A DNA stretch of 47,561 bases, from IMG/VR virus record IMGVR_UViG_3300036951_000304; one strand, given 5' to 3'. The notes under the pieces are model-generated. The model worked only from the letters and a program-made list of their open reading frames with translations. It was not told the DNA's origin and searched no databases. The translations under genes were made by a program, and so were the position numbers. Of the stretch, positions 5,014-24,575 are shown one piece after another; within the stretch, counting starts at the first letter, position 1; the number at the start of each line of letters is the position of its first letter. Source of the DNA: a virus (taxonomy: Duplodnaviria; Heunggongvirae; Uroviricota; Caudoviricetes).

Positions 5014-5042
5014 TATTTATGAAAATATCTATGTTATTTATA
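5014..5042 (-). promoter_or_regulatory. Tandem T4-type late promoters (TATAAATA 5035-5042; CATAAATA 5014-5021)
   Basis: Exact T4 late consensus in the intergenic gap upstream of the 4983 gene. Confidence 0.7.
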
Positions 5043-7063: not shown

Positions 7064-7078
7064 ATTTCTAATCCTCCG

Positions 7079-7399
7079 TTAAAATTCGGGCGTAATCACA
7101 AATGCACCTGGCACACCACTTGCGGCACTAATATATCTGAAATTGAGTATATTGTCTCTACCAACGACCCTGAAGGCATCACCGTCTGACATAATATGTC
7201 CTATACCACTCGCCCCCTGTGTGGGTGTTTCCTTCCATGCAATTCTTATACTTGCGGTTTCACAGGTAATGAGAACCGATACCGATGGATTGCCATCTCC
7301 GTCAACAATTGCCGCGGATGGGAAAGCTGTTGCCGTATCCGTAGAAGCAACACGCATTGTTGGCCCATATACTCCCGTCATTGAAAAATCTCTTTCCAT
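7079..7399 (-). CDS. Hypothetical (probable virion) protein
   Basis: 106-aa ORF with a GGAGGAG RBS, in the late block. Confidence 0.6.
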   Translation of the reverse strand: MERDFSMTGVYGPTMRVASTDTATAFPSAAIVDGDGNPSVSVLITCETASIRIAWKETPTQGASGIGHIMSDGDAFRVVGRDNILNFRYISAASGVPGAFVITPEF

Positions 7400-7411
7400 A
7401 TTTCTCCTCCG

Positions 7412-7906
7412 TTATAACCCAAATCTTCTTTGTTCTGCTTTGAGCCACTTCATTCCTTTCTGTTTGGCTCTTGTTATTCTCGATGAAAAATCTTTTCGCC
7501 AAGTTCCGATGATGGCGACCTGCATTTCATCACCACGAAATTCCTTGGCATCCCTGATATATCCCGCGCCGAGGATGTATCTTCTTATGGCTATAACCAT
7601 CCAAGGCCATCTCTTCTTTATCAATTTCCAAGTCAGAAGAATGTGGCCGTGATTTTTCTCCAATGTGTCCATCCACACCTTGGCAAAAATCTTCCTCTGG
7701 TTTCGAGGGATATAGGTAAAATTGATGCCCTGAATATAATTGTGCATCTTTCTCGTCTTGGGATGAATACCACGAATAGCGTTGATACAGATTATGGTTG
7801 GTTCGGGATCATTTTCATAATTCAGATATTTGAACCTGTAAATGTGACCCGATTTGAAAGAAACCCTTCCTTCCCTTACACTATATACTTTGTTCAATTG
7901 TGGCAT
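7412..7906 (-). CDS. T4 gp2-like DNA end-protector protein
   Basis: GHIYRFKY...DPEP...GINFTYIP...R...IRRY motifs resemble the gp2 family; adjacent to gp4 as in T4. Confidence 0.6.
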   Translation of the reverse strand: MPQLNKVYSVREGRVSFKSGHIYRFKYLNYENDPEPTIICINAIRGIHPKTRKMHNYIQGINFTYIPRNQRKIFAKVWMDTLEKNHGHILLTWKLIKKRWPWMVIAIRRYILGAGYIRDAKEFRGDEMQVAIIGTWRKDFSSRITRAKQKGMKWLKAEQRRFGL

Positions 7907-7908
7907 TT

Positions 7909-8367
7909 TTACCTACCAAACAATTCCTTTTCAGTAAATATTTTAAACTCGTAACCCCGTTTTCTACAGAACTCCGAGGCGGCAGACCATTTGGCCTGAT
8001 TTCTTGAGTAGGTTATCTGTTCATATATTTTTGTCTTGACAGATTTATTGCCCTTGCTCTTTGGGGGAATGGTTTCCCTGTGAGGCTTTATTTCAACAAC
8101 ATAGATAACTTCCTTTTTGTTTTTATCCAGAACTCTTAGCATAAAATCCGGATAATATCGTCTGTGTTTCTTGTTTACAGGATCAAAATACGGTATCTCG
8201 ATGCCCTCGGAAGCCCAAGTTATGACACTTGGATTTACATCACACCATTGGGCGAATTTCCTTTCCCATTCACTTCTTATAAGTATCGGCCATTTCCCCT
8301 TGTACTTCTCCGGAAATTTGGGTTGAAATGCCGAAGTCTTATCTGTAATATGATGTTTTATGAACAA
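7909..8367 (-). CDS. gp4: T4 gp4-like head completion nuclease (TnsA-N-like PD-(D/E)xK)
   Basis: RSEWERKFAQWCDVNPSVITWASEGIEIPYFDP...RRYYPDF...VEIKP. Confidence 0.9.
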   Translation of the reverse strand: MFIKHHITDKTSAFQPKFPEKYKGKWPILIRSEWERKFAQWCDVNPSVITWASEGIEIPYFDPVNKKHRRYYPDFMLRVLDKNKKEVIYVVEIKPHRETIPPKSKGNKSVKTKIYEQITYSRNQAKWSAASEFCRKRGYEFKIFTEKELFGR

Positions 8368-8369
8368 AA

Positions 8370-8564
8370 CTAATCCCTGTATGTATCCCTGTACCGTTCC
8401 AATGATTTTTGGAGCGCTTCTTTTCTTTTTCTCAATGCTTCTTTTGTATTTTTATCTTCCGTGCTCTGGATTTGTTTTTCCAAATCCTGTATCTGTTTTT
8501 TTAACCTTATTCTCGCATTTATTGTCTGTGTATCATCTTCAGAGAGAAATTCGTAAAGTCTCAT
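8370..8564 (-). CDS. Small coiled-coil protein with MRLYEFLSE leader
   Basis: 64-aa ORF coupled to its neighbours. Confidence 0.65.
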   Translation of the reverse strand: MRLYEFLSEDDTQTINARIRLKKQIQDLEKQIQSTEDKNTKEALRKRKEALQKSLERYRDTYRD

Positions 8565-8983
8565 TTTTCTTCCTTTTCATACTCTTCCGCTTCTTCCTTG
8601 GTCTTGTGAACCGTTCCCGGCGGATGATGTGGAGGAGCATATAAACTGTAAAGCTTCAATTTCTTCGTGGAGGATGTATTCACAACATTGTGATATGTTC
8701 CCTGTCTGATAAGAATTGAACTGCCATCTTTTATCGGGATTTCCTCTTTATTATTTACAACTACTTTTCCCTCTCCCTCATCAATACGGAAGAACTGGTC
8801 TGTATCATTGTGAACCTCATTCCCGATTTCACTATTGGGCTCAATGGCCATCAGAACAAGTTGAAGATGTTTTCCTGTATACAGAACTTTTCGGAAATAA
8901 TTATTTTCAACAGTTTCATCTTCAATATCTCTCACATCAAATGGTTTTTGCTCTTCTTCTTTCAGATAATCTTTGAATTTCAT
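8561..8983 (-). CDS. Cupin-domain protein with MKFKDYLKEEE leader
   Basis: Cupin motifs GNEVHNDTDQFFRIDEGEG...ILIRQGTYHNVVN...LYAPPHHP; start moved to the second Met. Confidence 0.85.
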   Translation of the reverse strand: MKFKDYLKEEEQKPFDVRDIEDETVENNYFRKVLYTGKHLQLVLMAIEPNSEIGNEVHNDTDQFFRIDEGEGKVVVNNKEEIPIKDGSSILIRQGTYHNVVNTSSTKKLKLYSLYAPPHHPPGTVHKTKEEAEEYEKEEK

Positions 8984-8996
8984 TATTTCCCCCAAT

Positions 8997-9182
8997 TTAT
9001 CTCGTCAGTTTATCGAATGCAAGGCCGATCTTATGCCAGTCAATCCAACCATCTCCACCTCTATTCATCACCATTTGGTTCAGAATAAAATCATAGGCCC
9101 CATCTTCTCCATATTCGGCAAGAAGATTTTCTGCTTCCTGTCTATAATTTATCGCCTCGGTCAAATAATTTTTAAATTTCAT
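8997..9182 (-). CDS. Small hypothetical protein with MKFKNYLTEA leader
   Basis: 61-aa ORF, tightly packed. Confidence 0.65.
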   Translation of the reverse strand: MKFKNYLTEAINYRQEAENLLAEYGEDGAYDFILNQMVMNRGGDGWIDWHKIGLAFDKLTR

Positions 9183-10478: not shown

Positions 10479-10506
10479 ATAATCCACCCCCATACTTTGT
10501 CAATAG

Positions 10507-10514
10507 TATTTATA
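10507..10514 (-). promoter_or_regulatory. T4-type late promoter TATAAATA (leftward)
   Basis: Exact consensus in the divergent intergenic gap. Confidence 0.75.
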
Positions 10515-10532
10515 TTTATTTACTGTCTTTCC

Positions 10533-10540
10533 TATAAATA
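10533..10540 (+). promoter_or_regulatory. T4-type late promoter TATAAATA (rightward, PAS operon)
   Basis: Exact consensus about 35 nt upstream of ATG 10576, followed by a GGAGG RBS. Confidence 0.75.
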
Positions 10541-10575
10541 ATACTGAATATTCGTCATTCGGGCGGTGGAGGTTT

Positions 10576-12093: not shown

Positions 12094-12462
12094 ATGAGGT
12101 TGTTGAATTTCTTGAAGAGTATTGAGGAACAGGATGGCGGTATGGTTGGTGCGACTACAACCGCAAGTATCGCCCAATATCCTGTCAGGCTCGGTATTGG
12201 AATTACCAGAAGGGAAGCCACCAAAAATTGGAGAAGATGGAAAAAGAAAAGGAAAAAAGTCGAGGAGCAGGAAGCCAGTATCGGGATGCCTGGTGGTTGG
12301 GGTTCGGCTGGTGGGTCACCCACAACAAAACAAATATTACAGGATCCTGTAAAGCACGATTACGGTATGACAAGAAGGGAAGCCACCAAAAATTGGCGCA
12401 GACGCAAAAAAAGGATGAAGGAATTATTCCAAAATGGCACATCTCATTCAATATCTGATTGA
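12094..12462 (+). CDS. Basic protein with duplicated TRREATKNWRRxKK motif
   Basis: 24-bp exact repeat at 12208-12231 and 12373-12396; MRLLNFLKSIEE leader. Confidence 0.7.
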   Translation: MRLLNFLKSIEEQDGGMVGATTTASIAQYPVRLGIGITRREATKNWRRWKKKRKKVEEQEASIGMPGGWGSAGGSPTTKQILQDPVKHDYGMTRREATKNWRRRKKRMKELFQNGTSHSISD

Positions 12463-13798
12463 ACAGAATATAGACAAAGTAAGATTTGTAGTTCTTACTG
12501 GCAGAAAACCAAATGGTGAAAATGAACTGATCAGGACGGCCAGAGTTATCAAGGAAACTTGTGATAAAAAAGGTGTGCCCTGTTATGTCGTATTTGCTGA
12601 GGATGGATATATTTCCAGAAAGAACGGAAAAGTTTATATCCACAATATTGAAGATGATAAGGGTTTCGAAATCAATTCTCAAGACACGGTTGTTATCGTG
12701 AGAGGAAGCGTCACCAAGTCACAATCAAGCCTTGACCTTCTTTCCCAAATCGAGAGACATAATATCTTTTGTGTAAATCACAGATTGACACTTGAACAAT
12801 GTGCTGACAAGTACAGAACAGCTCTCGTACTTGCGGATGCGGGAGTGTCAACGCCCAAAACAGCCATTGTCAATAACGAAAAGGGTCTGGAAATCGCGTT
12901 CAAGAAAATGGGAAGAAGGTTCCCTGTCATTCTCAAGACATTGACTGGCTCAAAAGGCGTCGGTGTATTTGTCGCAGACAGCTGGGAAGGATTGAAATCA
13001 ACCCTGCAAGCCATCTGGAAAATAAATCATAGTGTTGAAATCATTATGCAGAGATTTCTTGAGGCTGACTATGATCTCCGTGTTCACGTTCTTGGAGATA
13101 AAGTCATCGCGGCAATGAAGAGGAAAAAAATAAAGGGAGATTTCCGCTCCAACTATTCTCTCGGCGGTAAAGTCGAAAAAGTGGAGTTACAGGATGACGA
13201 AATTGAACTCGCCATCGCGGCCTCGAAAGCCGTGGGGGCGACTTGGTGTGGTGTCGATATAATGAGAAACAAGAAGGACAAAAAGCTTTTTGTCCTCGAA
13301 GTCAATTCATCGCCCGGCACAGAGGGGATTGAAAAGGCCACGGGAAAATCGGTTGTAACAAAGGTGGTCAATTACCTTCTGGACAAAAGAAACTGGTCGA
13401 GAAGGCCAATAGAGTGTGGCTACCTTGAGACAATGGAACTGGAAGGCATCGGGCCCGTAGAAGCCAAACTTGATACAGGTAACGGCTCTTTCTGTGTCAT
13501 TCACGCCGAGGAATATGAGGTGGATGGAAATAAAGTTACTTGGCTATTCAACGGAAAGGAAATCACAAGTGAACTTGAAAGTGAAAGAACCATCAAGGTT
13601 GGTGGACTGAAAACTGGAACAGTAGACAGGCCGGTAATCTGGTTGGATGTCAAATTCAGAGGTGAAACTTACAGGATGAGATTTGCCCTGAATTACAGGG
13701 GTGACAGAAAGACTTATCTATTGATGAATAGAAACTTCATTCGTAAGGCAAATCTGATAATCAATCCTCGCAGAAAGCATGTGTTCACGAAAGATTAG
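12434..13798 (+). CDS. rimK: RimK-family ATP-grasp ligase fused to a RimK-associated putative protease domain
   Basis: ATP-grasp motifs CADKYRT, PVILKTLTGSKGVGV, DLRVHVLG, DFRSNYSLGG, GVDIM, LEVNSSPG; C-terminal EAKLDTGNG...RPVI...LMNRNFI. Confidence 0.88.
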   Translation: MAHLIQYLIEQNIDKVRFVVLTGRKPNGENELIRTARVIKETCDKKGVPCYVVFAEDGYISRKNGKVYIHNIEDDKGFEINSQDTVVIVRGSVTKSQSSLDLLSQIERHNIFCVNHRLTLEQCADKYRTALVLADAGVSTPKTAIVNNEKGLEIAFKKMGRRFPVILKTLTGSKGVGVFVADSWEGLKSTLQAIWKINHSVEIIMQRFLEADYDLRVHVLGDKVIAAMKRKKIKGDFRSNYSLGGKVEKVELQDDEIELAIAASKAVGATWCGVDIMRNKKDKKLFVLEVNSSPGTEGIEKATGKSVVTKVVNYLLDKRNWSRRPIECGYLETMELEGIGPVEAKLDTGNGSFCVIHAEEYEVDGNKVTWLFNGKEITSELESERTIKVGGLKTGTVDRPVIWLDVKFRGETYRMRFALNYRGDRKTYLLMNRNFIRKANLIINPRRKHVFTKD

Positions 13799-14403
13799 CT
13801 CAACCTTTTCACAATACCGTCACACATTCCAAGTTTTATTGCTTCCTCCGGACGCAGATATTTATTCCTGTCAATCAGTTTCGTAACATCTTCTGCCGAC
13901 AATTTACATCTTGAAGCAATTTCCTCAATCATCTGGCCCTGTAGAAACTTTATCTCTTCTGTATCAATGACCACATCGGCAAGTGTTCCCCCGTGCCAGG
14001 AACTTATCTGATGGAACATCAATCTGGAATGTGGGGTCATAAACCTTCTTCCCTTCTTACCGTTTATGAAAATAAAGGCGGCCGCCGACATTGCTTTTCC
14101 TATACAGATTGTCCTGATAGGGGATACAATGATGTTCATCATATCCGTTACGGAAAACATACTATCAACTTCACCACCGTAACAGTCAAGTATCAATGTA
14201 ATCTCTTTCAATGGGGCATCAGATTGATAATCCAACAATCTTTCATTTATATCTTTTGCCAGATTTTCGTCAAGGTTCCCCACGATATAGATAATCCTGT
14301 CCATTCTCTTGGCTGTTTTCGGGGGCCCCATCTCCTTCATTATCTCCTGTGGATCAATAATAAAATGAACTTCCTGTGATTCTTTCTTTGTTTTCCTCTT
14401 CAT
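13795..14403 (-). CDS. clpP: ClpP-family protease subunit
   Basis: RIIYIVG, YGGEV, GKAMSAA (catalytic Ser), RLMFHQ (His), PEEAIKLGMCDGIV. Confidence 0.9.
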   Translation of the reverse strand: MKRKTKKESQEVHFIIDPQEIMKEMGPPKTAKRMDRIIYIVGNLDENLAKDINERLLDYQSDAPLKEITLILDCYGGEVDSMFSVTDMMNIIVSPIRTICIGKAMSAAAFIFINGKKGRRFMTPHSRLMFHQISSWHGGTLADVVIDTEEIKFLQGQMIEEIASRCKLSAEDVTKLIDRNKYLRPEEAIKLGMCDGIVKRLS

Positions 14404-14405
14404 CT

Positions 14406-15281
14406 CTACTCACCAAAAAATAAATTCAAGCCCTCACCAGCTGAGCCAGAAAGTAATTCCTTTTTATTCATAGGTTCCAGTAAAATCTCAATCTTGGACA
14501 AGAAGTATTTATCCAGCATTTTGTCGTAATCTATCTGGACAACCTTGTCAAATTCGTGGGGCCATCTCAAAAAGGATATGACATCCAGACCCAAGGCATT
14601 TCTCTTGAGATACACAACCTTGGCCTTTGCCCCGCTATAAATGTCCTCATACTTTTTTTCAAGTTTGAGGTGCTTGAGTAATTTCCTGTAATTATTTATG
14701 CCTCTCAAATGGAATGGAGTTCCCTTCTCAATCTCTCCATCTGCTTTCACAAATTTCTCTATATCACTTGCTCCGATGTTGACTGAAATCTCTTCCGGAT
14801 AAACCCCCTTCAATTCCTTCTTGTACTGCTCTATCTTTTTCAGGATGTTCTCATCCGTTTCGCCGCGGAGGATCATCTCCATCACATCTTTCAATCTCGG
14901 CCTGATGGCCTCCGGTGTGTCAGACCGGATAATTTCCAGACCAGTAACCTTTATCTTGTCAACTGGGGCACCCTCTTCATTGACAGACCAGTAACCATAC
15001 TTCTTCTTCTTCACGAAGAGAGCTGTCTTAGCCACGATTTCCTGTTTGAACTTTATCCTGAAATCGGTAACTGCGGAGTTATACATTTTCCTCTGGACTT
15101 CCCGATAACAAGTCTCGTTCACATAATTTTCTATAATCGAGCCCAGTTCAAGTATCATCTTTATAGCAACATCATCACTATATCTCGATACATCAATTCC
15201 ATTATCAGAAAGGAATTTGCCCGTCGAAATAAACAGGGAATCAGTATCAGCGTATAAAACATAATCAGTTTTCTTTATCAT
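14406..15281 (-). CDS. polB: Family B DNA polymerase, C-terminal part (motif C, palm/thumb)
   Basis: MIKKTDYVLYADTDSLF, FKQEIVA...KKKYG, KVTGLEIIRSDTP. Its ATG lies inside the 3' end of the endonuclease ORF. Confidence 0.92.
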   Translation of the reverse strand: MIKKTDYVLYADTDSLFISTGKFLSDNGIDVSRYSDDVAIKMILELGSIIENYVNETCYREVQRKMYNSAVTDFRIKFKQEIVAKTALFVKKKKYGYWSVNEEGAPVDKIKVTGLEIIRSDTPEAIRPRLKDVMEMILRGETDENILKKIEQYKKELKGVYPEEISVNIGASDIEKFVKADGEIEKGTPFHLRGINNYRKLLKHLKLEKKYEDIYSGAKAKVVYLKRNALGLDVISFLRWPHEFDKVVQIDYDKMLDKYFLSKIEILLEPMNKKELLSGSAGEGLNLFFGE

Positions 15282-15876
15282 AAAAACATTTCCAACCCCT
15301 GTGATGTTTTCTCTTTCCCACAGCAACCGAGGACATCAAGGTTTGTTGTAAGTTATGTTTTTTACAAAAATCTATCAATCCTTTTATTCTATATTCAATG
15401 CCGGCCGGTGAAATGATGATATACTTTTTACTATTCCAATGTAATTCCCCACATCCTGGCTTGCATTTATCTATCCACCATTGGGGTAATTTTTTACCCC
15501 TCGTTGGGTGGGGGCCCCTCTTCTTTGTTTCGCTAATTTTTTTCTTCACATCATCGGGCCGTGATTTACCGAAAAATGGGTGCCTTTCGCCCGGCATCCA
15601 ACCATCACCGCCTTCAGTACAATTATATCCCAATTCTATTGCCCTCGTTTCCTTTATAAAGGAAATTTCCTTTTCGTTTAGCTCATCAACTTTCCCTTTC
15701 CAAAGGACTTCAACATCAAAATTTTCCCAGCCATACTTATCAATGGCCCTTGTAAGTGGAGTTATATTTCTACGATCTTTTTTATGTGATGACATTCTTT
15801 TTTCGAGGCTTGTTACAGTTTTTCCAATATAAAATTTACCATTTATTTTATTTGTAATTTTATAAATTATTGACAT
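15265..15876 (-). mobile_element. GIY-YIG homing endonuclease inserted within the polymerase gene
   Basis: IIYKITNKINGKFYIGKT...R...H, GYN, NUMOD3-like HPFFGKSRPDDVKKKISE, C-terminal HTH-like segment. Confidence 0.92.
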
Positions 15877-15909
15877 ACAAGAAACCAAAATGTATATATG
15901 CTATATAAT

Positions 15910-17667
15910 CTATTTATATTTTTCGAGAAAAGACTTCAATTTTACATCTTTATCTGGATTATTCAGGAAATCATTTACATACCTCTCCCCGGCCTTGATG
16001 GTTTGTCTACCACAGGATGTAATTGCCTCTGATATGTTCACATTGAAATAACGGGAATAGGGAACACTCGTAACACCAAAAACTGCATTGAGTAGGATTT
16101 TGAGTGCGTTCTGTAGTGAATCGAATTGATTTATCCTCTCGTCTGCCCTCTTTTTGTTATCATCCCTCAATTCGGATAAAGATTTTTTCATCTTTATCAT
16201 ATTGTTCTTGATGTCGCGCCTCTTATTGAAAACATCCTTTTCAATCTGGGCGAGCACGCCGGGAGTCTTTGTCGAAAATACCGAACCACAAGGAGCGATA
16301 CTTATCAACTTCTTTTCGATGGCTGTATTGAAGGCCTCAAGTCTCTTACCTGAAAATGTTATCTTTTTCCCGTCCTTGAGAAGATTGAAATCGGGAAAAC
16401 TTCTCTGTCTCACATATTGAATGACGGTATCCTCTGTCATATCGAGCACCCTGCCATAATATGTTTCCGGTGACATATTCAATGTGATTATAGCCGTGGG
16501 ATAAGATGAAGCAATATCCAAATCAACAACCCACTCGTATTTACCTTGTTGTGGTTCCTTGACATATGCCGCCTCAAATGGTTCCTGCTGACCCCCAATG
16601 AATTTCGGGGCACACAATCCATTTCTCCTGTAATGTGTCAACAACAAGCCTTCAATGAGCTGCGTCATCACATCATAGTATTTCATCGGGCTTTTTGTGA
16701 GAAGTGAAAGTGCTTGAACCTGACCTATGTAATTCAATTTTCTGTCAAGCTGGAAAACACGAAGAGAGTCCGTTATATTGTAATCCACAAATAAATCCCA
16801 ATCCTTCTCACACAATTCCCTGATATCCTTGTACTGTGAATAGTCTACCTTGCCTTTCTCCAATTCATATTTGGAAACAAAATCGAGAGAATATCTTTCA
16901 AGTTTTACGGGGGAATACCATTTATAAAGGTCAATATAATCGAGTATGGTCAGGCCGGAGATGTTTATGTTCATCATTCCACTCTTCGATTCCCATATTT
17001 GAACATCGCTAATTGGGGATATCCTCATAAACATTCGTGGGTCATCGAATATTCTTTTGGCCCTGTTTATGAGATAAGGAATGTCAAAATTTGATATAGA
17101 CCAACCGGAGATAACATCGCAGGGAAATTTGTGGAAGAAATTCAGTACCCTTGTCAAGAGGGATTTCTCATTTTCACACTTGATATACCTCACATACTTT
17201 TCCTTGGAAAACTTCCCATTCCTGTAATCCCTCAAGCCAAATACAGTTGTAGTATCTGTATCACTATCATAAATGGATGTGAGACAAATCGGGTCACGGG
17301 CATCTTCCGGATGAGGAAACCCAACTTTGTTATCAACTTCCATATCGAAGAAATACTTCTTGAGTTTTGGAACCTCAATTTCATTTTCCGGTATACCATA
17401 ATATCTCTCGGCAAGAAATTGGATTTCGGGTCTTACCCTGTCCTCAAATATATTGTCCTTGCCCTTCAGGTAGGCAAAGTAATCCGAATAAGATCGGAAC
17501 AGCCTTTTGGTAACGGGTTGGCCGTCTATTGTCTTTACATCACCCTTTTCATACGGGAAAAACACATATGGAACCCAAGGAATTTCTGTATAAAAATTTT
17601 CACCTTTGAGTTGTTCCCAAAGGTGAATAGTGGATGATTTTGTATTGTAATATACATTCTTGAACAT
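15910..17667 (-). CDS. polB: Family B DNA polymerase, N-terminal part (3'-5' exonuclease, motifs A and B)
   Basis: FFDMEV (ExoI), SGWSISNFDIPYL (ExoII), YNITDS (ExoIII), DLDIASSYP (motif A), QNALKILLNAVFG (motif B). Confidence 0.95.
   Translation of the reverse strand: MFKNVYYNTKSSTIHLWEQLKGENFYTEIPWVPYVFFPYEKGDVKTIDGQPVTKRLFRSYSDYFAYLKGKDNIFEDRVRPEIQFLAERYYGIPENEIEVPKLKKYFFDMEVDNKVGFPHPEDARDPICLTSIYDSDTDTTTVFGLRDYRNGKFSKEKYVRYIKCENEKSLLTRVLNFFHKFPCDVISGWSISNFDIPYLINRAKRIFDDPRMFMRISPISDVQIWESKSGMMNINISGLTILDYIDLYKWYSPVKLERYSLDFVSKYELEKGKVDYSQYKDIRELCEKDWDLFVDYNITDSLRVFQLDRKLNYIGQVQALSLLTKSPMKYYDVMTQLIEGLLLTHYRRNGLCAPKFIGGQQEPFEAAYVKEPQQGKYEWVVDLDIASSYPTAIITLNMSPETYYGRVLDMTEDTVIQYVRQRSFPDFNLLKDGKKITFSGKRLEAFNTAIEKKLISIAPCGSVFSTKTPGVLAQIEKDVFNKRRDIKNNMIKMKKSLSELRDDNKKRADERINQFDSLQNALKILLNAVFGVTSVPYSRYFNVNISEAITSCGRQTIKAGERYVNDFLNNPDKDVKLKSFLEKYK
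15911..15918 (-). promoter_or_regulatory. Late promoter TATAAATA for the homing endonuclease
   Basis: Exact consensus overlapping the last codons and TAG of the polymerase N-part, 35 nt upstream of the HEG ATG. Confidence 0.7.
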
Positions 17668-18089
17668 TATTCAATCTCGTATAACGATATCCTCTCGGCA
17701 TTCAGGCCTGCAGTCGCTTTGCCACTTCTCTTCCCAGCTGTCGTGGAAGTTTTCGCTATACCAAAACCTGATAAAGTTGAGAGGCCTTCACCCGCCATAA
17801 TAATATCCGTATAAAACTTTACCAGCTGGGGTTGTGTCAATTCCCTGTCAAGATATTTCTTGATGTTCGTTATTTGTCTCTTGACCCGCGCCTCCCCTTT
17901 TACGTCCATCAATTCCTCGACCATCAAAAGTGTTTCCTGTATCCAATGACGAATAGTTTCCGCCGATACAAATTGTATTTTTGGATACCAGATAGATAGT
18001 GTTGATGAAAGGACAGATTTCAAGTCATCACAAGTGGTATAAAAATTTCCATTCAATATAATTCTGATATTCTCTTTTCTTTTTGCCAT
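17667..18089 (-). CDS. Hypothetical protein
   Basis: ORF coupled by TAATG to the polymerase start; start set at MAKRKEN. Confidence 0.65.
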   Translation of the reverse strand: MAKRKENIRIILNGNFYTTCDDLKSVLSSTLSIWYPKIQFVSAETIRHWIQETLLMVEELMDVKGEARVKRQITNIKKYLDRELTQPQLVKFYTDIIMAGEGLSTLSGFGIAKTSTTAGKRSGKATAGLNAERISLYEIE

Positions 18090-18093
18090 AAAA

Positions 18094-19410
18094 TCACCCA
18101 TTCTTTTTCTGAAATACAAATACTGGCTCGTATTTGTTCACTCTACCTTCACATCTTACAGTATTCATTGTACCACGGGCAGAGATATCCTCAAGGTTGT
18201 TATCTCGTCCTATAGTAAATCTCATTAGCATATGTATCATATCACGATTTTGAAACCCAACACTCTCTGCCAAGGACGCGGAATCCTCTTCCATTTTGAG
18301 ATATTTATTTTTCGCCAATTTTATGTTTGCAATATTCCAGACAAAGAAACCACCGGGCATCAGAAATTCGTGGACATTCTGCATTGTCTTTTTCAAGAAA
18401 CCATTCTTCCACGCTTCGTAGGAATTGAATTTCTTATATGACTGTGCATCATCATCACTATATCTTTCCCGATTGAAATATGGTGGTGAGGTATAAGCCA
18501 AAACCGCCTTACCTTTGTACTTTTCAAATAGGTCTGTTTTATCAAAATCCTCGGAACCCGAGCAAATTGGATACACTTCGGCGGTGCAGGAAGGGTCAAT
18601 GAATTTCTTCCAGAACTTTTCTATCATCCCATACCTCTCGTATATCGCCGAGTTGGGGTCTGTTCCTATATATACACACCTTTTATTTCTTAGCTGGGAA
18701 GAAGCCGAAAGAAATGAAATCAATCTACCGCCCCACCCCATTGACGGGTCAAAGACAATTATCTCTTCCTCCTCTACACAGGGAGACATCTTCAACATAA
18801 AATGTTGATATATCCATTTTGCCACGGGGCATCTTATATTTGAAACTGGCTGTGTTCCGGAACCCATTCTGATTGATTGTTTGAGAGTGGGCCAGACGGG
18901 TTTATTCGGGTTGTCTCTCCATCCATTGAGTTTATCTTTCCACAACATCCTCTTCATCTTCTTCATATAGACTTGTTTATCTCTCAACAAGTCTATTACA
19001 GATGGTGTCTGCTGATTTATTCCACGGGTAATGGGAACATCCATCATTTCTGGAAACCAATGGTCTATAACAGTTGACCAGGCGTTGTACCCCTTGAGGA
19101 TTTTCTTGCCATCCTCTTCAAAATATATGTCAGGTTTATTCGGGTTGAGCCCGTGAAACTTTCTCAATCTGGTAATTATTTCTTCAAGAGAGGCGGAGCC
19201 TGCACCAACCGGATAATGTTCCTTCTCATACTTCTCCAAAAAGAAAATACGCAGTTTTTCTGCGTACTTTTCAAATTCCTTTTCAGACATATCCCTGACT
19301 ATTGGCCACAATGGGTTCAATTCATCAGGAACTTCAAGTGTCGTATACAATGGAAGGAAATCACAGTCCTCAATTTTATCTTCCTTCACATCAAAAAATG
19401 TTTCAATCAT
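18094..19410 (-). CDS. DNA amino-methyltransferase (m4C/m6A type)
   Basis: Motif I VFDPSMGWGGRL, YIGTDPN, catalytic TSPPYFNRERYS. Confidence 0.85.
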   Translation of the reverse strand: MIETFFDVKEDKIEDCDFLPLYTTLEVPDELNPLWPIVRDMSEKEFEKYAEKLRIFFLEKYEKEHYPVGAGSASLEEIITRLRKFHGLNPNKPDIYFEEDGKKILKGYNAWSTVIDHWFPEMMDVPITRGINQQTPSVIDLLRDKQVYMKKMKRMLWKDKLNGWRDNPNKPVWPTLKQSIRMGSGTQPVSNIRCPVAKWIYQHFMLKMSPCVEEEEIIVFDPSMGWGGRLISFLSASSQLRNKRCVYIGTDPNSAIYERYGMIEKFWKKFIDPSCTAEVYPICSGSEDFDKTDLFEKYKGKAVLAYTSPPYFNRERYSDDDAQSYKKFNSYEAWKNGFLKKTMQNVHEFLMPGGFFVWNIANIKLAKNKYLKMEEDSASLAESVGFQNRDMIHMLMRFTIGRDNNLEDISARGTMNTVRCEGRVNKYEPVFVFQKKNG

Positions 19411-19975
19411 TATATCCTCTGAATTTCTCAATACTCTCTTTCAATAGTTGTTCGCCCTTCGACGGATTATAAATCGTAAAGGCCGGGTGAACAGAAATCA
19501 CCACGGGGCAATCAAATTCCCTGCTGTGTACTTCTTTTCCACTATGTTTCATTATATCACTTTCGCCCAGAATTGTAAACAGGGCGTACCCACCCAAAAT
19601 CAATATGGCCCGCGGTTTCAAAACCTTCAAATATTTTCTTATCCACGGCCAGCATTGTTCCATCTGTTCATTCGATGGTTTTCCATTCTTATTTCCCACC
19701 ACAGGCCTGCAATTTACGGAATTGATAATCAGGAAATCCTCTCTGGAAAGGCCGTTTCTTTTCATTGCATCCCAAAGGATATTTCCGGCCTTTCCGACAA
19801 AAGGTGAGTTCTCACGGACTTCATCGAAGCCCGGAGCCTCACCTATTATCGCAAAACGGGAGGAAGATACCCAATAGGGTTTCGCCCCACCATTCTGAAA
19901 GAGAGAACATTTTTTACACTCCCCGATCATATTGTCGAGAAGCGACAACATTCGTAGTTGTTTTTTATCCATCAA
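19403..19975 (-). CDS. udg: Uracil-DNA glycosylase family 4 (Fe-S)
   Basis: CKKC, IIGEAPG, PFVGKAG, NSVNCRP, EQC, SVHPAF. Confidence 0.93.
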   Translation of the reverse strand: MMDKKQLRMLSLLDNMIGECKKCSLFQNGGAKPYWVSSSRFAIIGEAPGFDEVRENSPFVGKAGNILWDAMKRNGLSREDFLIINSVNCRPVVGNKNGKPSNEQMEQCWPWIRKYLKVLKPRAILILGGYALFTILGESDIMKHSGKEVHSREFDCPVVISVHPAFTIYNPSKGEQLLKESIEKFRGYND

Positions 19976-20174
19976 GTATCATCACCAATACAGCACAAAA
20001 TATGAGAAACACAAGACCAAGAACGGGCGGAACCCAAATCGGAGCAAATATCCACCACCAAGACCACCCAATAAAACCCAAGACTTTGAGGGTTATCAAA
20101 AATATTGTCAATAAAACAAAAGGCCACATACTCAAACTTCTCCTTTCTCTTTTTTCCCACCATCGTTTTTTCAT
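19965..20174 (-). CDS. Small membrane protein (WSWWW motif, Tmemb_185A-like phage family)
   Basis: LITLKVLGFIGWSWWWIFAPIW; two hydrophobic helices. Confidence 0.75.
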   Translation of the reverse strand: MKKRWWEKRERRSLSMWPFVLLTIFLITLKVLGFIGWSWWWIFAPIWVPPVLGLVFLIFCAVLVMILDG

Positions 20175-21547
20175 CGCCTGCTCCTCTGGCCTCTTTCCTG
20201 ACCAATCAGGACGGCTTTTCTTTCATCACCAGTTTCCTTCGCGTCCTCCAACCACAGTTCAAGCTCGGAAGTATCGTACATCTTCAATGTGCGAGTATCG
20301 TAATAAAATTTGTCCACTTCCCCAACTCGACCACCAATCCTGTTCTTCACAATCTTATAATGCAGTTCACTCTCATAAATCAGTTTCTCGTCATCCACGC
20401 CGTAGATTGCCATAAAATCTGCGGTTGCCGGAACCCCCATACTTTCTGCGATATAGACAAAATCAACTTCATCAAAAGCAATCATCGAGCCTTCCCTGTT
20501 CAATTGTGAAACAGAAACAACCGGACATTCAAACTGGAATGACATCGCTCTACATTCCTCGGCTATCCTCTTGACATCAGAATAGAGATTGTCTTTACCT
20601 GAATAGGTGGGTTTCATTATATTGATATAGTCGAGGTAGATGATATCTGGTTTCACACCCCTGATAATCCATTCCCTTATCAACCTTTTTATATCCTGAA
20701 CAGAGGCCTCGCCGGTTGGAAATTGTTTGATGACGAGTTTTCCTCGTTGAGGGGTTTCACTCTTTATCTTTCTCAATCTGGATATCAATTGGCTCTTCAT
20801 CGCCTCAAGAGTATATATCTTGTTGATATCAAGGTTACTGAAGATACTGTCAAATCTTTGTGCGAAAGCATCCTCTGACATTTCCAATGTACAGAGAAAT
20901 ACATTATGACCGTGAAGAACTTGGCGGGCAGCAATATTGGCAAGGGTATTTGATTTGAACCCGTGAACACGGGCCACAATTACCGAAAATGTAAATGGTG
21001 GGAACCCACCATTGAGATACTCATCGAATTGGGGAAAATATGTTCTTATCCTGTTTGAGGATGTAGTGAAAATCCTCTTCAATCTTTCCCCGAGCATTTC
21101 AAAATAGTCAAGACCGATATCTATCCTCAAATCTTTCGCCAGGGCAGCCTCGACCAGTTCTCTTATCTTTCCTCTCTCTTCTATCTTTCCACTATTGATA
21201 ACATCAACGGAATCGAGAATGGCTCTCTTGACGGCTTTATCCTTGAGATATTCATTCGATTCCTTGAGAAGATAATCCCAGTTCTTCGCGATATCGAAAT
21301 CAATAGCGTCCATCTCGGAGAATATTTCCCGAATCTCATCATCGTGATGAGAAAGGGAACCCCTGATGGCATCCCTCGGTGGGATTTTGTCATACTGCTC
21401 CAGATGAGACTTCAGAAAAGTGAAAATCTCCGATATTACGGGATCATCAAAATACTCTGTTCGAAATGTGGATGTAATAGTCGCAAGAAATCCCTTGTCA
21501 ACCATACAACCTTTCAATATGACTTTTTCAAGAAATCTCGAATCCAT
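20171..21547 (-). CDS. gp41: Replicative DnaB/gp41-like helicase
   Basis: TLEMSE, IKQFPTG, IYLDYINIM, VVSVSQLNREG, AESMG, VKNRIGG; Walker A atypical (ARVHGFKS). Confidence 0.9.
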   Translation of the reverse strand: MDSRFLEKVILKGCMVDKGFLATITSTFRTEYFDDPVISEIFTFLKSHLEQYDKIPPRDAIRGSLSHHDDEIREIFSEMDAIDFDIAKNWDYLLKESNEYLKDKAVKRAILDSVDVINSGKIEERGKIRELVEAALAKDLRIDIGLDYFEMLGERLKRIFTTSSNRIRTYFPQFDEYLNGGFPPFTFSVIVARVHGFKSNTLANIAARQVLHGHNVFLCTLEMSEDAFAQRFDSIFSNLDINKIYTLEAMKSQLISRLRKIKSETPQRGKLVIKQFPTGEASVQDIKRLIREWIIRGVKPDIIYLDYINIMKPTYSGKDNLYSDVKRIAEECRAMSFQFECPVVSVSQLNREGSMIAFDEVDFVYIAESMGVPATADFMAIYGVDDEKLIYESELHYKIVKNRIGGRVGEVDKFYYDTRTLKMYDTSELELWLEDAKETGDERKAVLIGQERGQRSRR

Positions 21548-21915
21548 CAATTCACCTGCTCGAATTGGCTACACTTATATATTATCTGATCTTTGGACAT
21601 TTGACAATTATGCTTACAAAGATTACAGAGGCTCTTATTTTTTTCGAGAGAAATTGGATAGACCTTTTCATAAGATTTGGGTAAAATGAAAAGTTTTTCC
21701 ACATCAAGCTCGTCCAATATTTCCTTTGCAACGGTGCTCGCTCTGCCTTGCAATCTCAAATATTGTTTGAGAGTAAGATAATTTTTGATATTTGGAACAT
21801 CATCAACCTTGGTGATTTTTTTCAAAAAATTGAATTTGTTCTTCCTCAAAATTCCAAGGTTCCAGCTTCCATCCGTATCCTTTACAACGGCCATTGCTTT
21901 TATGTTTATACTCAT
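21547..21915 (-). CDS. Hypothetical protein with C-terminal CxxCxxxC
   Basis: Start reassigned to MSINIK (GGAGG RBS), downstream of the early promoter. Confidence 0.65.
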   Translation of the reverse strand: MSINIKAMAVVKDTDGSWNLGILRKNKFNFLKKITKVDDVPNIKNYLTLKQYLRLQGRASTVAKEILDELDVEKLFILPKSYEKVYPISLEKNKSLCNLCKHNCQMSKDQIIYKCSQFEQVN

Positions 21916-21977: not shown

Positions 21978-22016
21978 TTTACACTTGAAATACAATATGT
22001 TATAATAGTATAAATA
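21978..22016 (+). promoter_or_regulatory. Tandem early (TTTACA-17-TATAAT, 21978-22006) and late (TATAAATA, 22009-22016) promoters for uvsY-HEG-uvsW
   Basis: Both consensus sequences are exact. Confidence 0.8.
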
Positions 22017-22519: not shown

Positions 22520-23146
22520 ATGATAATTTATAAAGTAAGTAACAAAAAAACTGGTAAATCATATATTGGAAAAACAATTCTATCTATTTCCAAAAGGATT
22601 TCAAATCATCTGAATGAAGCCCAAAGAAATAAAAAGAGATATGTATTTCATAATGCGCTAATAAAGTATGGTATAGACAATTTCAACATTGAAGTATTAT
22701 GTCATTGCTCAAATAAAGATAATCTCAGTAAAATGGAGACATTCTATATTCAATATTATAATACGCACTATCTCGATGGATATGGTTATAATATGTCTTA
22801 TGGTGGAGATGGACAAATTGGGCATATACATACAAAAGAAACAAGAAGAAAAATGAGTTTAGCACAAAAAGAAAGACATAAAAAATTTGGGCATCCATTG
22901 TCGGGTAAACATTTGACAGAAAAGCATAAACATAGGCTTTCATTATTCTGGAAAGGAAAAGAAAGAAAAAAATGGACAGCCGAGCAAAAAAGAAAGGCCT
23001 CTGAATTTTGGAAAGGGAAAAGATCGGGTAAAAATAACTCGATGTATGGTAGAAAAAGAATTTTTTCTGATGAAACCAAAAAGAAAATAAGTGAGGCTGT
23101 GAAACTAGCGTGGCAAAAAAGAAAAGAAAATGGTTACAATTTGTAA
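22520..23146 (+). mobile_element. Free-standing GIY-YIG homing endonuclease with NUMOD3 repeats
   Basis: MIIYKVSNKKTGKSYIGKT, GYGYN, HTKETRRKMS, FSDETKKKIS. Confidence 0.92.
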
Positions 23147-24575
23147 ACACGACTTTCTGAACATCCAAATAAACACGGAAGATTACAAATATCTCCGAGA
23201 AGTGAGAGACTTCTTCTCAGCATATGTCGAAGGGTATCAATTTATGCCCTCCTTCACCCACGGTGGATGGGATGGAAGAGTTTCAATGTTGAACCTCTCC
23301 AACAAAACAATCCCCTATGGTCTATTGACAGACTTCATAAAGTTCCACAAAAAATATCATTCAGAGACAGAATTGAAAATAGAACAAGATGTTCTCAATT
23401 TCTTCCGTGGGAAGAATGTTGATCCTGTATATGACTTGTCTCTCCAACCCCATTACTATCAGGATGATTGTATCAGGACTGCCCTCAAGTATAAACGGGG
23501 AATAATAAGGTCAGCCACAGCAAGTGGAAAGTCTCTTATCATATCCTACATAATCAAAACCCTGTTCGAAAACAACCTTTCAAAAAAGGTTCTCATCATT
23601 GTTCCCACAATTTCTCTGGTAGAGCAGTTTTATGGTGACCTCTTGGAATATGGTTATTTCAAAAAAGAAGTCTTGGGAAGGGTTTATGAGAAATGTAAGG
23701 AGTTTGACAGGAAGGTTGTCATTTCCACCTGGCAGACATTGAGCCGAAATCACAAATTACTTCCCCAATTCGATTGTCTGATATGTGATGAAACACACGG
23801 AGCCAAGGCACACGAAATCAAGAAAATCCTCAGCAAATGCACACAAGCGGATTACCGCTGGGGATTTACTGGTACACTTCCCACACCAAAAATCGACATA
23901 TGGAATGTCAAGTCATACCTTGGCCCGATATTGAGAGAGTATGGTGCTGGTCAGCTTGGGGATGAGGGATATATCAGCAAATGTAATGTCAAGTTTGTTG
24001 GAATACATTACAAGGGGAACTATAAGGGAACCTATGAGGAAATCAAAGATGCCATTTTCAGAAATCATTTCAGGCTGAATACCATCAGGGATATCATCAA
24101 ATCCGTGGACAAAAATATCCTCGTACTGGTTGCCAGAGTAGAAAAGGAGGGGATATTGCTGAAGCAGTATCTTGAAAAAAACCCAGTTGACAGCAGGGAA
24201 ATTGTATTTCTGTACGGAAAAACAAAGGTCGAGGACAGGGAATATTGGAGAAAGGAATGTGAAAGAAGAAACGATATCATTCTGATCGCGACTTATGGTA
24301 TATTCCAGATGGGTGTCAACATTCCATCATTGAAGTATGTCATTCTCGCCAGCCCGTTCAAAAGCAAAATCAGGGTTCTTCAATCAATTGGTAGAAGTTT
24401 GAGAAAACACGCGGATAAACTGGACGGGGCCTATGTATTCGATATTTTCGACAACTGTAAATATCTGAGAGACCACGGTATAAAAAGAGAACGACATTAT
24501 ATATCTGAGGGGTTCAAGGTCGAAGATATCCCTCTTGAAGAAGGATCATCATTTTTTCCCACCGAAAACCAGTAG
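23130..24575 (+). CDS. uvsW: UvsW SF2 DNA helicase
   Basis: SATASGKS, VPTISLVEQ, ISTWQT, DETH, GFTGT, GVNIPSL, LQSIGRSLR. Confidence 0.95.
   Translation: MVTICKHDFLNIQINTEDYKYLREVRDFFSAYVEGYQFMPSFTHGGWDGRVSMLNLSNKTIPYGLLTDFIKFHKKYHSETELKIEQDVLNFFRGKNVDPVYDLSLQPHYYQDDCIRTALKYKRGIIRSATASGKSLIISYIIKTLFENNLSKKVLIIVPTISLVEQFYGDLLEYGYFKKEVLGRVYEKCKEFDRKVVISTWQTLSRNHKLLPQFDCLICDETHGAKAHEIKKILSKCTQADYRWGFTGTLPTPKIDIWNVKSYLGPILREYGAGQLGDEGYISKCNVKFVGIHYKGNYKGTYEEIKDAIFRNHFRLNTIRDIIKSVDKNILVLVARVEKEGILLKQYLEKNPVDSREIVFLYGKTKVEDREYWRKECERRNDIILIATYGIFQMGVNIPSLKYVILASPFKSKIRVLQSIGRSLRKHADKLDGAYVFDIFDNCKYLRDHGIKRERHYISEGFKVEDIPLEEGSSFFPTENQ

Follow-up and report, generated by a model that had tools for sequence, protein, structure and literature searches.

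A T4-like phage family B DNA polymerase gene divided ahead of motif C, with a homing endonuclease gene between its two parts

How does a phage obtain its replicative DNA polymerase when the gene for that enzyme is divided inside the palm and a homing endonuclease gene (HEG) lies between the two parts? The question is raised by a 47,561-nt stretch of DNA (IMG/VR record IMGVR_UViG_3300036951_000304; the whole stretch is referred to here as the window) from a T4-like phage recorded from sludge, wastewater and soil samples. ORF calls and Pfam matches identify two minus-strand genes for a family B polymerase (PolB) that resembles T4 gp43, with an HEG between them. The answer we favor, with a probability of roughly 0.85, is a two-subunit polymerase with a composite active site, formed without splicing, and a mobile HEG situated between the genes for its subunits. 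The phage would make the polymerase as separately translated polypeptides of 585 and 291 aa, with no splicing at the RNA or protein level, and the halves would join non-covalently and complete the palm beta-sheet. Since the palm would be completed by both chains, the metal-binding aspartates (D384 of the N-part, D12 and D14 of the C-part) would come from different chains.

Anatomy of the locus and position of the break

All features of the locus lie on the minus strand. The N-subunit gene (17667..15910), defined by its ORF and Pfam matches, encodes 585 aa and stops at a TAG codon (15912-15910). A 33-nt spacer (15877..15909) leads to the ATG, at 15876, of a free-standing GIY-YIG HEG (15265..15876; 203 aa), which in the window has the same frame as the N-part across the TAG. 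The 3′ end of the HEG overlaps the start of the C-subunit gene (14406..15281; 291 aa; ATG at 15281, MIKKTDYVLYADTDS) by 17 nt in differing frames (15265..15281), an overlap conserved in relatives L002 and L013, and the C-part initiation region GGTTGGAAATGTTTTTATG is encoded within the last HEG codons. A first-pass annotation, made from the sequence alone, had reported this stop, gap and overlap, and on re-reading its coordinates were all exact. The sequence is metagenome-derived and the runs that contain the junction may include the source sample, and the layout could in principle be an assembly chimera or a sequencing error. However, protein records place the identical N-part and C-part proteins on 19 contigs each, all sampled words of the 1-kb junction are present in 14 DNA runs (the source sample possibly among them), and a single DNA contig covers 14852-17800, i.e., three genes. 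Moreover, a lineage 74% identical in the polymerase (L002, L003, and L012-L014) repeats the layout exactly in other samples. The misassembly against which the annotation had cautioned was not found, and we consider the chance of an artifact negligible.

The N-part matches DNA_pol_B_exo1 (PF03104, 2e-20) and positions 10-202 of the DNA_pol_B profile (PF00136), and the C-part matches positions 224-363 of the same profile. On the N-part are found the N-terminal domain, the 3′-5′ exonuclease (Exo I D108/E110, Exo II D195, Exo III Y296/D300), palm motif A (D384, with SSYP at 387-390) and the entire fingers, motif B included (K523, N527, and G531); it ends in the palm helix ERYVNDFLNN. The C-part carries the motif C beta-hairpin YADTDS (D12/D14), KKKKY (K92, K93, and Y95), the remaining palm and the thumb. 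With Exo I-III, motifs A, B, and C and KKxY all present, the pair belongs to the family B polymerases of T4 gp43 type. N-part residues 159-570 align with RB69 gp43 186-607 and C-part residues 7-262 with RB69 616-878; the break falls in a variable-length loop (RB69 608-615) about eight residues upstream of the motif C DTD. The proposal that the polymerase is split between motifs B and C is thus borne out by ORFs, Pfam and the RB69 alignment, as is the placement of the catalytic aspartates on two polypeptides, motif A being on the N-part and motif C on the C-part.

Splicing, constraint and assembly of the two halves

HEGs of phage polymerase genes are frequently carried by introns or inteins, and inteins occur near this site in relatives. 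Together with the frame shared across the TAG, this could mean that the HEG resides in a group I intron, an intein or a split intein, and that splicing restores one polymerase. Against this, an Rfam search of 13500-18500 at E ≤ 10, the kind of Infernal check proposed at the outset, returned no group I or group II intron: there is no core match, and non-coding sequence amounts to 33 nt, the HEG overlapping the C-part, in keeping with the original view that a group I core has no space here. Intein termini had likewise not been visible in the sequence, and Pfam matched no intein (Hint) domain in either polymerase half, whereas the same search recognized the true inteins of relatives L023 and L055. 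A stop codon and a change of frame separate the two parts, and the N-part tail and C-part head together (~20 aa) do not exceed the length of the loop in unsplit relatives, which leaves no room for split-intein halves. RNA-library contigs bridge both the N-part/HEG junction (15739-15972) and the HEG/C-part junction (15217-15397) unchanged; the spliced mRNA that would have pointed to a single product was not seen, as no joined N-C form occurs among these contigs, which cover parts of the region, may derive from contaminating DNA and do not reveal expression level, strand or transcript ends. Finally, the shared frame is lost in L013 and L014, where the spacer differs by 1 nt, and relatives with overlapping cistrons are unable to splice. 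Restoration of the polymerase by splicing is, in our estimation, very improbable.

An explanation of a different kind is that polB was inactivated by the insertion, that the halves are decaying pseudogene fragments and that another polymerase replicates the phage. The window is part of a genome, and a second polymerase could be encoded elsewhere. Nevertheless, both polymerase ORFs are intact, and their catalytic residues do not vary among dozens of homologues that were split independently: the exonuclease and polymerase motif residues of the N-part in 48 stand-alone split homologues, and D12, T13, D14, K92, K93, and Y95 across 65 stand-alone C-parts. In comparison with L002, dN of the polymerase halves (0.14-0.18) is far below a saturated dS, and the coupling of stop and start has been refined in relatives. 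Judged from their sequences, both halves are under constraint. The palm interface is also complete in the predicted complex, which solved single-chain PolB structures may have shaped. We find decay of the gene hard to credit, although we would give it marginally more weight than splicing.

Assembly of the two halves was approached by structure prediction. A model of the N-part and C-part complex gave an ipSAE of 0.79 vs. 0.11 for the best control; in the benchmark, 58 of 80 solved complexes and 2 of 110 mismatched pairs attained that ipSAE mark. At least 97% of contacts are common to the three runs, with a partner pLDDT of at least 81. In the modeled interface, N-part residues 367-397 (the motif A strands) and 552-585 meet C-part residues 3-24 (the motif C hairpin) and 74-93. 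The model supports binding of the halves, even though the pass may reflect no more than likeness to solved single-chain PolB structures, and it suggests that they would assemble into one polymerase.

Comparison with known split polymerases

From split PolBs it can be learned how much cutting the catalytic core of a replicative enzyme withstands without loss of function. The closest parallels are in T4-like phages, where gene 43 has the order 43A, IC-UTS, seg43(25) (a GIY-YIG HEG) and 43B in phage 25, and 43A, IC-UTS and 43B in phage 44RR (Petrov, Ratnayaka and Karam, 2010; PMC2988022, PMC3061061). The split gp43A/B of Aeromonas phages co-purifies and is active (PMC2988022). The window resembles these phages in having a two-cistron T4-type gp43, with a GIY-YIG HEG in one phage and a short spacer in a relative, and in placing motifs A and C on separate chains; whether the HEG was the cause is a question common to both. 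The break, however, lies elsewhere. By alignment, 43A of 44RR (498 aa) stops at the fingertip, short of motif B, so that motifs B and C are both on 43B, and the initial statement that the Aeromonas proteins are split in the fingers agrees with a 43B that begins before KILINSLYG (motif B) (PMC3061061). The window N-part, in contrast, keeps the whole fingers, motif B and the next 50 residues, and is cut in a palm loop; its break lies after motif B, outside the fingertip-split class (44RR, 25, 31, 133, and 65). Further differences from phages 25 and 44RR are that the window C-part has no group I intron and that the host clade is only ~26-30% identical.

PhiKZ, a chimallivirus, has DNAP-N and DNAP-C subunits that form a stable 1:1 complex, which is active and has an RB69-like fold by cryo-EM (PMC13648687). 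Here too, a phage PolB is encoded by two genes and the motif A and motif C aspartates are on separate chains, but the PhiKZ split falls after motif A, in a big lineage-specific palm insertion, so that the fingers are on the C subunit, and its genes are unlinked and without an HEG, whereas the window halves flank one. The Methanothermobacter thermautotrophicus PolB is split ~83 residues after Pfu 467, at about Pfu 550 (Kelman, Pietrokovski and Hurwitz, 1999, as described in PMC3061061). It is likewise cut in the palm near motif C, requires both parts and has an origin that has been linked to inteins at the motif C region (PMC4104785). Unlike the phage gp43 of the window, it is an archaeal PolB3 with genes 85 kb apart and no HEG. 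Judged from the position of the DTD motif in Pfu, the Methanothermobacter split presumably lies just after motif C, and the large subunit would then keep all three motifs.

Separate-chain aspartates are therefore not special to the window site, being found already in 44RR/25 and PhiKZ (PMC2988022, PMC13648687); on the sequences compared, the break ahead of motif C adds a new position to a type of split enzyme that was known before. In the window polymerase the cut falls within the palm, with the helix after motif B on one side and the catalytic DTD strand on the other, a position absent from the studied phage and archaeal cases compared (the 44RR group, PhiKZ, and Methanothermobacter). For the HEG itself, the nearest precedent is nrdA-a/mobE/nrdA-b of phage Aeh1, discussed with fractured genes and a gene-breaking model in which later loss of the HEG leaves a broken gene (PMC3045599, PMC2677866). 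Both loci have a free-standing HEG in an essential gene of nucleotide metabolism or replication and two polypeptides, which reassemble in Aeh1 and would do so here, but the Aeh1 host gene is nrdA and mobE is an HNH enzyme. Strictly defined fractured genes also have split-intein halves, which the window polB does not.

The endonuclease gene, the site in relatives and the origin of the split

The claim of a free-standing GIY-YIG HEG between the halves held up. The ORF matches PF01541 (5.6e-9, above the cut-off; NUMOD3 fell below it) and phrog_314 (homing endonuclease; 3e-29), its translation has Y5, Y16, R27, H31, and N87 in place in the N-terminal catalytic domain, and it has its own start and stop with no surrounding intron or intein. 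Its C-terminal ~80 aa are common only to HEGs at the same polB site, and the HEG relatives whose contigs were read (58-86% identity; P0241, P0242, P0243, and P0244) all sit at the polB junction. The gene is absent from L001, where polB is whole, and from L004, where it is split (71-74% identity). As first reported, a late-promoter-like octamer of T4 type, TATAAATA (15911..15918, minus strand), lies within the last N-part codons, overlapping them and the stop (AAA TAT AAA TAG) 34 nt upstream of the HEG ATG. By count alone the octamer is not over-represented in the window (6 found vs. 3.45 expected), and the raw count was set aside as promoter evidence; the positions alone are informative, five of the six copies being 13-51 nt upstream of a same-strand ATG-ORF of at least 100 aa (P ~9e-5). 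The octamer and the ATTATATA that follows it are conserved in L002 and L013. The HEG is thus probably transcribed late, from its own promoter in the end of the N-part. The L002 and L013 spacers contain a GGAG Shine-Dalgarno sequence, whereas the 33-nt spacer of the window does not; deprived of the GGAG of its 86% identical relatives, the window HEG may be poorly translated or beginning to decay. A T4-style hairpin masking the HEG ribosome-binding site in early transcripts was not evident, as the predicted fold of the spacer region (15960-15850; -14 kcal/mol, z -0.99) is no stabler than shuffled sequence. Read-through or recoding of the TAG, joining the N-part to the HEG, was rejected on the loss of frame in L013 and L014 and on the normal reading of other window genes with table 11.

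The arrangement had been called an unusual variant. This is true relative to published splits but not in metagenomes, where the site is split in about half of an uncultured clade, usually without an HEG. A single-protein scan of viral contigs found only four such loci, and an alignment-based scan found the rest: 43 of 81 related loci are split in the RB69 608-615 loop. Abutting or overlapping cistrons (ATGA, TAATG, and TAAATG) are found at 19 of the 43, where there is no intervening sequence and splicing is therefore impossible. Short spacers occur at a further 13, and the other 11 contain inserts of HEG size that belong to two unrelated nuclease families, so that 32 lack an insert of that size. 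Two of the short spacers hold HEG remnants, namely 43 aa from the C-terminal end of a GIY-YIG HEG in L048 (E 3e-14) and 66 aa of a Vsr-like HEG in L068 (E 1e-17). The second family at the site has a restriction-endonuclease-like domain (PF18741, MTES_1575, below the Pfam cut-off) that we read as a candidate for the Vsr-like type of PMC2677866. Short ORFs in spacers of 235-345 nt (L017, L024, L046, and L005) have no similarity to either HEG family, and those of L024 and L046 have no Pfam match. Two relatives (L023 and L055) have inteins in or beside the DTD, 8-10 codons from the break. In a tree built from the N-terminal 560 aa of 119 sequences, the split or whole state changes 22 times, with starred branches forcing at least 16; this is a FastTree tree of one segment, in which recombination blurs "changes" and gains and losses are counted alike. 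The whole allele P0004 is nested among split alleles at 71-74% identity.

Comparison of the window with L002 points to mobility. Nucleotide identity is 0.70 across most of the N-part, climbs to 0.78 in its last 255 nt and 0.81 in the HEG, and falls to 0.77 in the first 400 nt of the C-part and 0.69 in the remainder. HEG-bearing pairs, and no others, are 8-10 points more similar in the HEG and 250-400 nt of flank than in the remaining gene; in L004 and L001, which are equally distant but HEG-less, identity does not rise at the flanks. HEG dS against L002 is 1.48, vs. saturation in the polymerase, and its dN/dS is 0.06. The pattern is as expected from homing with co-conversion. The HEG would cut HEG-less polB alleles of co-infecting relatives, and repair would copy it along with a few hundred flanking bases, whereby the split itself would also be transferred. 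The length-variable loop at the break (RB69 608-615) would tolerate interruption, and as the HEG decayed the gene would remain split as two coupled cistrons.

Did the HEG cause the split? It is conceivable, if doubtful, that the split is older, that polB was already two cistrons, perhaps through a frameshift in the loop or the imperfect removal of an intein, and that the HEG is a passenger for which the junction was a harmless landing place; this concerns origin alone and accepts the two-subunit enzyme. An older split would suit the 32 of 43 split relatives without an HEG-sized insert, 19 of them tightly coupled, the use of one junction by two unrelated HEG families, and the inteins of L023 and L055. 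An origin by intein excision has been proposed for the Methanobacteriales split (PMC4104785), and a similar doubt was raised over phage 25 vs. 44RR (PMC2988022). On the other hand, the remnants in L048 and L068 show that at least some HEG-less splits descend from HEG-bearing ones. In the window, moreover, the N-part stop lies inside the probable HEG promoter and the C-part start inside the HEG coding end, so the cassette supplies what makes the split work; the flanks appear to be co-converted with the HEG, and the whole allele P0004 is nested among split ones.

Tentatively, then, the break ahead of motif C may be a horizontally spreading, self-perpetuating trait carried by HEG cassettes of at least two families. 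If so, the stop, promoter and restart signals of the cassettes would turn whole polB genes into split ones across a large uncultured T4-like clade. The junction left after HEG decay would lack an intact target and resist re-invasion, which would account for the split state of about half of the clade. With the two inteins added, some 15 codons of an essential enzyme would then have been a long battleground ending in permanent gene fission. The relatives at this site represent every stage, from whole gene to HEG-bearing, HEG remnant, short spacer and overlapping cistrons, and with two nuclease families and two inteins this comparative series allows the HEG life cycle and gene breaking to be tested on an essential gene. 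The site also offers natural designs for a two-piece polymerase. For annotation, the "DNA polymerase" fragments of ~290 and 585 aa that are frequent in viromes from sludge and aquatic habitats are not to be taken for truncated or broken genes.

The best INPHARED relatives of the window polymerase, at ~30% identity, are those of cyanophages, the Sinorhizobium phiM12 group and Caulobacter Cr30. One match, Syn33, appeared as two polymerase features, but this reflected an overlap with the next gene only, and the Syn33 polymerase is whole.

Position of the break in the polymerase

The polB gene of the window is divided between two open reading frames on the minus strand, with a third frame between them. 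The N-part (585 aa) occupies 17667..15910 (-) and ends in a TAG at 15912-15910. The middle frame (203 aa) begins with the ATG at 15876, 33 nt past that stop, and ends at 15265, and the C-part (291 aa, starting MIKKTDYVLYADTDS) begins with the ATG at 15281, 17 nt within the 3′ end of the middle frame and in a different frame from it, and ends at 14406. Pfam assigns DNA_pol_B_exo1 and positions 10-202 of the DNA_pol_B profile to the N-part, positions 224-363 of the same profile to the C-part, and a GIY-YIG domain to the middle frame, which PHROGs identifies as a homing endonuclease (3e-29; HEG hereafter). The split reported in the first-pass annotation is confirmed; its coordinates were all exact, including TATAAATA at 15918-15911 across the last N-part codons and the stop, and its interpretation is supported. 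The surrounding genes (12434-14403 and 18094-21550) are conserved with relatives; they include ClpP (13795-14403) and a RimK-type ATP-grasp protein with a C-terminal zinc-protease-like domain (12434-13798) downstream of polB, and a DNA methylase-like gene, a UDG-family gene and a DnaB-like helicase upstream, within 18094-21550.

By alignment, residue 570 of the N-part corresponds to RB69 gp43 residue 607, where the palm helix ERKVNEYLNE ends, and residue 7 of the C-part to residue 616, at the start of the FVLYGDTDS strand. The cut therefore replaces loop 608-615, about 8 residues ahead of the catalytic DTD. Exo I-III, motif A and the whole fingers including motif B lie on the N-part, and motif C, KKxY and the thumb on the C-part, so that motifs A and C are on separate polypeptides, as had been proposed. 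The closest unsplit relative (P0004, 885 aa, 74% identical, with a shared gene neighbourhood) is continuous through the loop and about 10 residues longer there; loop length differs among other unsplit relatives too.

Both a two-chain composite active site and an HEG between polymerase halves are already established. The Methanothermobacter polymerase is presumably split just after motif C, judging from the position of the Pfu DTD. Arithmetic on a position in PMC3061061 places that split at about Pfu residue 550. In PhiKZ the polymerase is interrupted downstream of motif A, within a palm insertion (PMC13648687); the window's split lies in the loop ahead of the motif C DTD. In Aeromonas phage 25, 43A is followed by a spacer, a GIY-YIG HEG and then 43B; in phage 44RR a spacer alone separates 43A from 43B. 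The split Aeromonas phage gp43 enzyme is active (PMC2988022). Alignment of 44RR 43A/43B puts that split at the fingertip, ahead of motif B (cf. PMC3061061), which bears out the earlier placement of the Aeromonas split in the fingers and differs from the site in the window. What is new is the position of the break, its frequency in an uncultured clade, and the fact that two HEG families and two inteins converge on a stretch of about 15 codons.

Intron, intein and assembly readings

The earlier impression that the locus has neither room for an intron nor intein termini holds. Only 33 nt are non-coding, and an Rfam search at E<=10, group I introns included, gave no intron match at the locus; neither half matched an intein (Hint) domain in Pfam, and their ends carry no extra residues for split-intein halves. 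The frame shared by the N-part and the HEG across the TAG is coincidental, since the spacer differs by one base in the 86%-identical cassette of two relatives (L013 and L014). An assembly artefact is ruled out by the occurrence of the N-part and C-part proteins on 19 contigs each, by the presence of all sampled junction words in 14 DNA runs, the source sample possibly among them, and by one DNA contig that spans the three genes. Window-identical contigs from three sludge RNA libraries bridge the N/HEG junction (15739-15972) and the HEG/C junction (15217-15397), and no joined form was reported among the RNA-library contigs; because these libraries may contain DNA, this argues only weakly against splicing.

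Spread and origin of the split

Among the best 120 clusters found with the N-part, 52 were of 568-612 aa and 62 of 840-906 aa, and the C-part retrieved over 100 stand-alone proteins, each about 290 aa long. Relatives, HEG-less ones included, were compared at 91 fetched loci, in 81 of which both polB regions were located: polB is whole in 38 and split in the same loop as the window in 43. The split loci comprise 19 with abutting or overlapping cistrons (ATGA, TAATG, TAAATG), 13 with spacers of 39-345 nt and 11 with inserts of 0.6-1.5 kb. A tree built from the N-terminal 560 residues of 119 sequences, with the junction left out, requires 22 changes between split and whole polB, at least 16 of them forced by well-supported branches. 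In the closest HEG-less split allele (L004:5767-5900), the frame for ...KTDFVCYI ends just ahead of DTDS and the called C-part begins at a TTG as LFAIFEWLDTDS; its motif C strand looks to have a 10-nt insertion bringing TGA and ATG, for which either a repair footprint or a sequencing error might account.

The 11 inserts belong to two unrelated families. One is the window's GIY-YIG type, 86% identical in L002, L003, L012, L013 and L014 and 52% in L064. The other carries zinc-ribbon/CapR repeats; the L055 insert has a C-terminal restriction-endonuclease-like domain (PF18741, MTES_1575, below the Pfam cut-off), the L049, L066 and L069 inserts are homologous to it along their length and that of L045 over its own, and we read the nuclease as probably the Vsr-like HEG type of PMC2677866. 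Two short spacers are visibly dead HEGs: one retains the last 43 aa of a GIY-YIG HEG (L048, E 3e-14), the other the final 66 aa of a second-family HEG (L068, E 1e-17). The relatives form a series that runs from HEG-bearing loci via remnants and short spacers to coupled cistrons, as expected under the gene-breaking model of Dassa et al. (PMC2677866). In one whole polB (L023), a LAGLIDADG intein some 340 aa long (L023:6707-7794) interrupts the catalytic motif between YGD and TDS, 8-10 codons past the split site, and the L055 C-part has a mini-intein directly after DTD. The L055 locus (6715-9118) thus combines the split, a 354-aa zinc-ribbon/MTES_1575-domain HEG between the halves and a mini-intein, recalling the spacer, HEG and intron of phage 25.

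Nucleotide identity between the window and L002 is 0.70 over most of the N-part, 0.78 over its last 255 nt, 0.81 in the HEG, 0.77 over the first 400 nt of the C-part and 0.69 over the rest; the equally distant HEG-less alleles, split (L004) and whole (L001), show no such rise at the junction flanks. The HEG has dN 0.092 and dS 1.48 (ratio 0.06), and dS of the polymerase halves is saturated. A selfish gene less diverged than the essential one surrounding it, and bordered by flanks of raised identity, is the trace that would be expected of homing with co-conversion, and suggests that the split travels with the cassette. The HEG relatives P0241, P0242, P0243 and P0244 (58-86% identical), whose contigs were read, lie at this polB junction; relatives below about 46% identity have only the catalytic domain in common, and the one such contig read (P0246) places it elsewhere. 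The window has a second free-standing GIY-YIG/NUMOD3 endonuclease gene (22520-23146, +; 208 aa), with 36% identity to polB HEG residues 3-132, which shares 17 nt with the beginning of the UvsW helicase gene (23130-24575), an overlap as long as the one at polB; the uvsW of a relative contains a LAGLIDADG intein (825-aa product).

We favour an HEG-driven origin of the split, because of the HEG remnants in the spacers of split loci, the stop and start signals supplied by the cassette and the flanks apparently co-converted with it. The same three observations weigh against the idea that the HEG lineage entered a junction already split and was not its maker, which we consider less likely even though the many HEG-free coupled splits among relatives and the inteins near the split site speak for it.

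Expression and function of the two halves

By count, TATAAATA is not enriched in the window; of the six copies, however, five precede a long same-strand ATG-ORF by 13-51 nt (P about 9e-5). The copies at 5035-5042 (-), 10507-10514 (-), 10533-10540 (+) and 22009-22016 (+), each that far upstream of an ORF start, fit the idea that the phage has T4-type late promoters; two stand back to back within the 10494-10575 intergenic region. The late-promoter-like copy noted earlier in the last N-part codons is present and, with the ATTATATA that follows, conserved in L002 and L013; from these positions and this conservation it may reasonably be taken for a late HEG promoter, as in T4. Ahead of its start codon (15877-15892), the window's HEG lacks the GGAG Shine-Dalgarno of its 86%-identical relatives (L002:5775-5794, start codon GTG; L013:6775-6792, ATG), and no hairpin masking the HEG ribosome-binding site is evident in the window. 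The initiation region of the C-part is encoded in the last HEG codons and is conserved.

Across 48 stand-alone N-parts and 65 stand-alone C-parts, none of the motif residues varies. A model of the N-part and C-part complex gave an ipSAE of 0.79 against 0.11 for the best control, a pass that may only mirror likeness to single-chain PolB, since those structures are solved. Of 80 solved complexes, 58 attained this mark, as did 2 of 110 mismatched pairs. The model supports binding of the two halves to each other: at least 97% of contacts are common to the three runs, partner pLDDT is 81 or higher, and the predicted interface sets the N-part's motif A strands and final helix against the C-part's motif C hairpin and KKxY strand.
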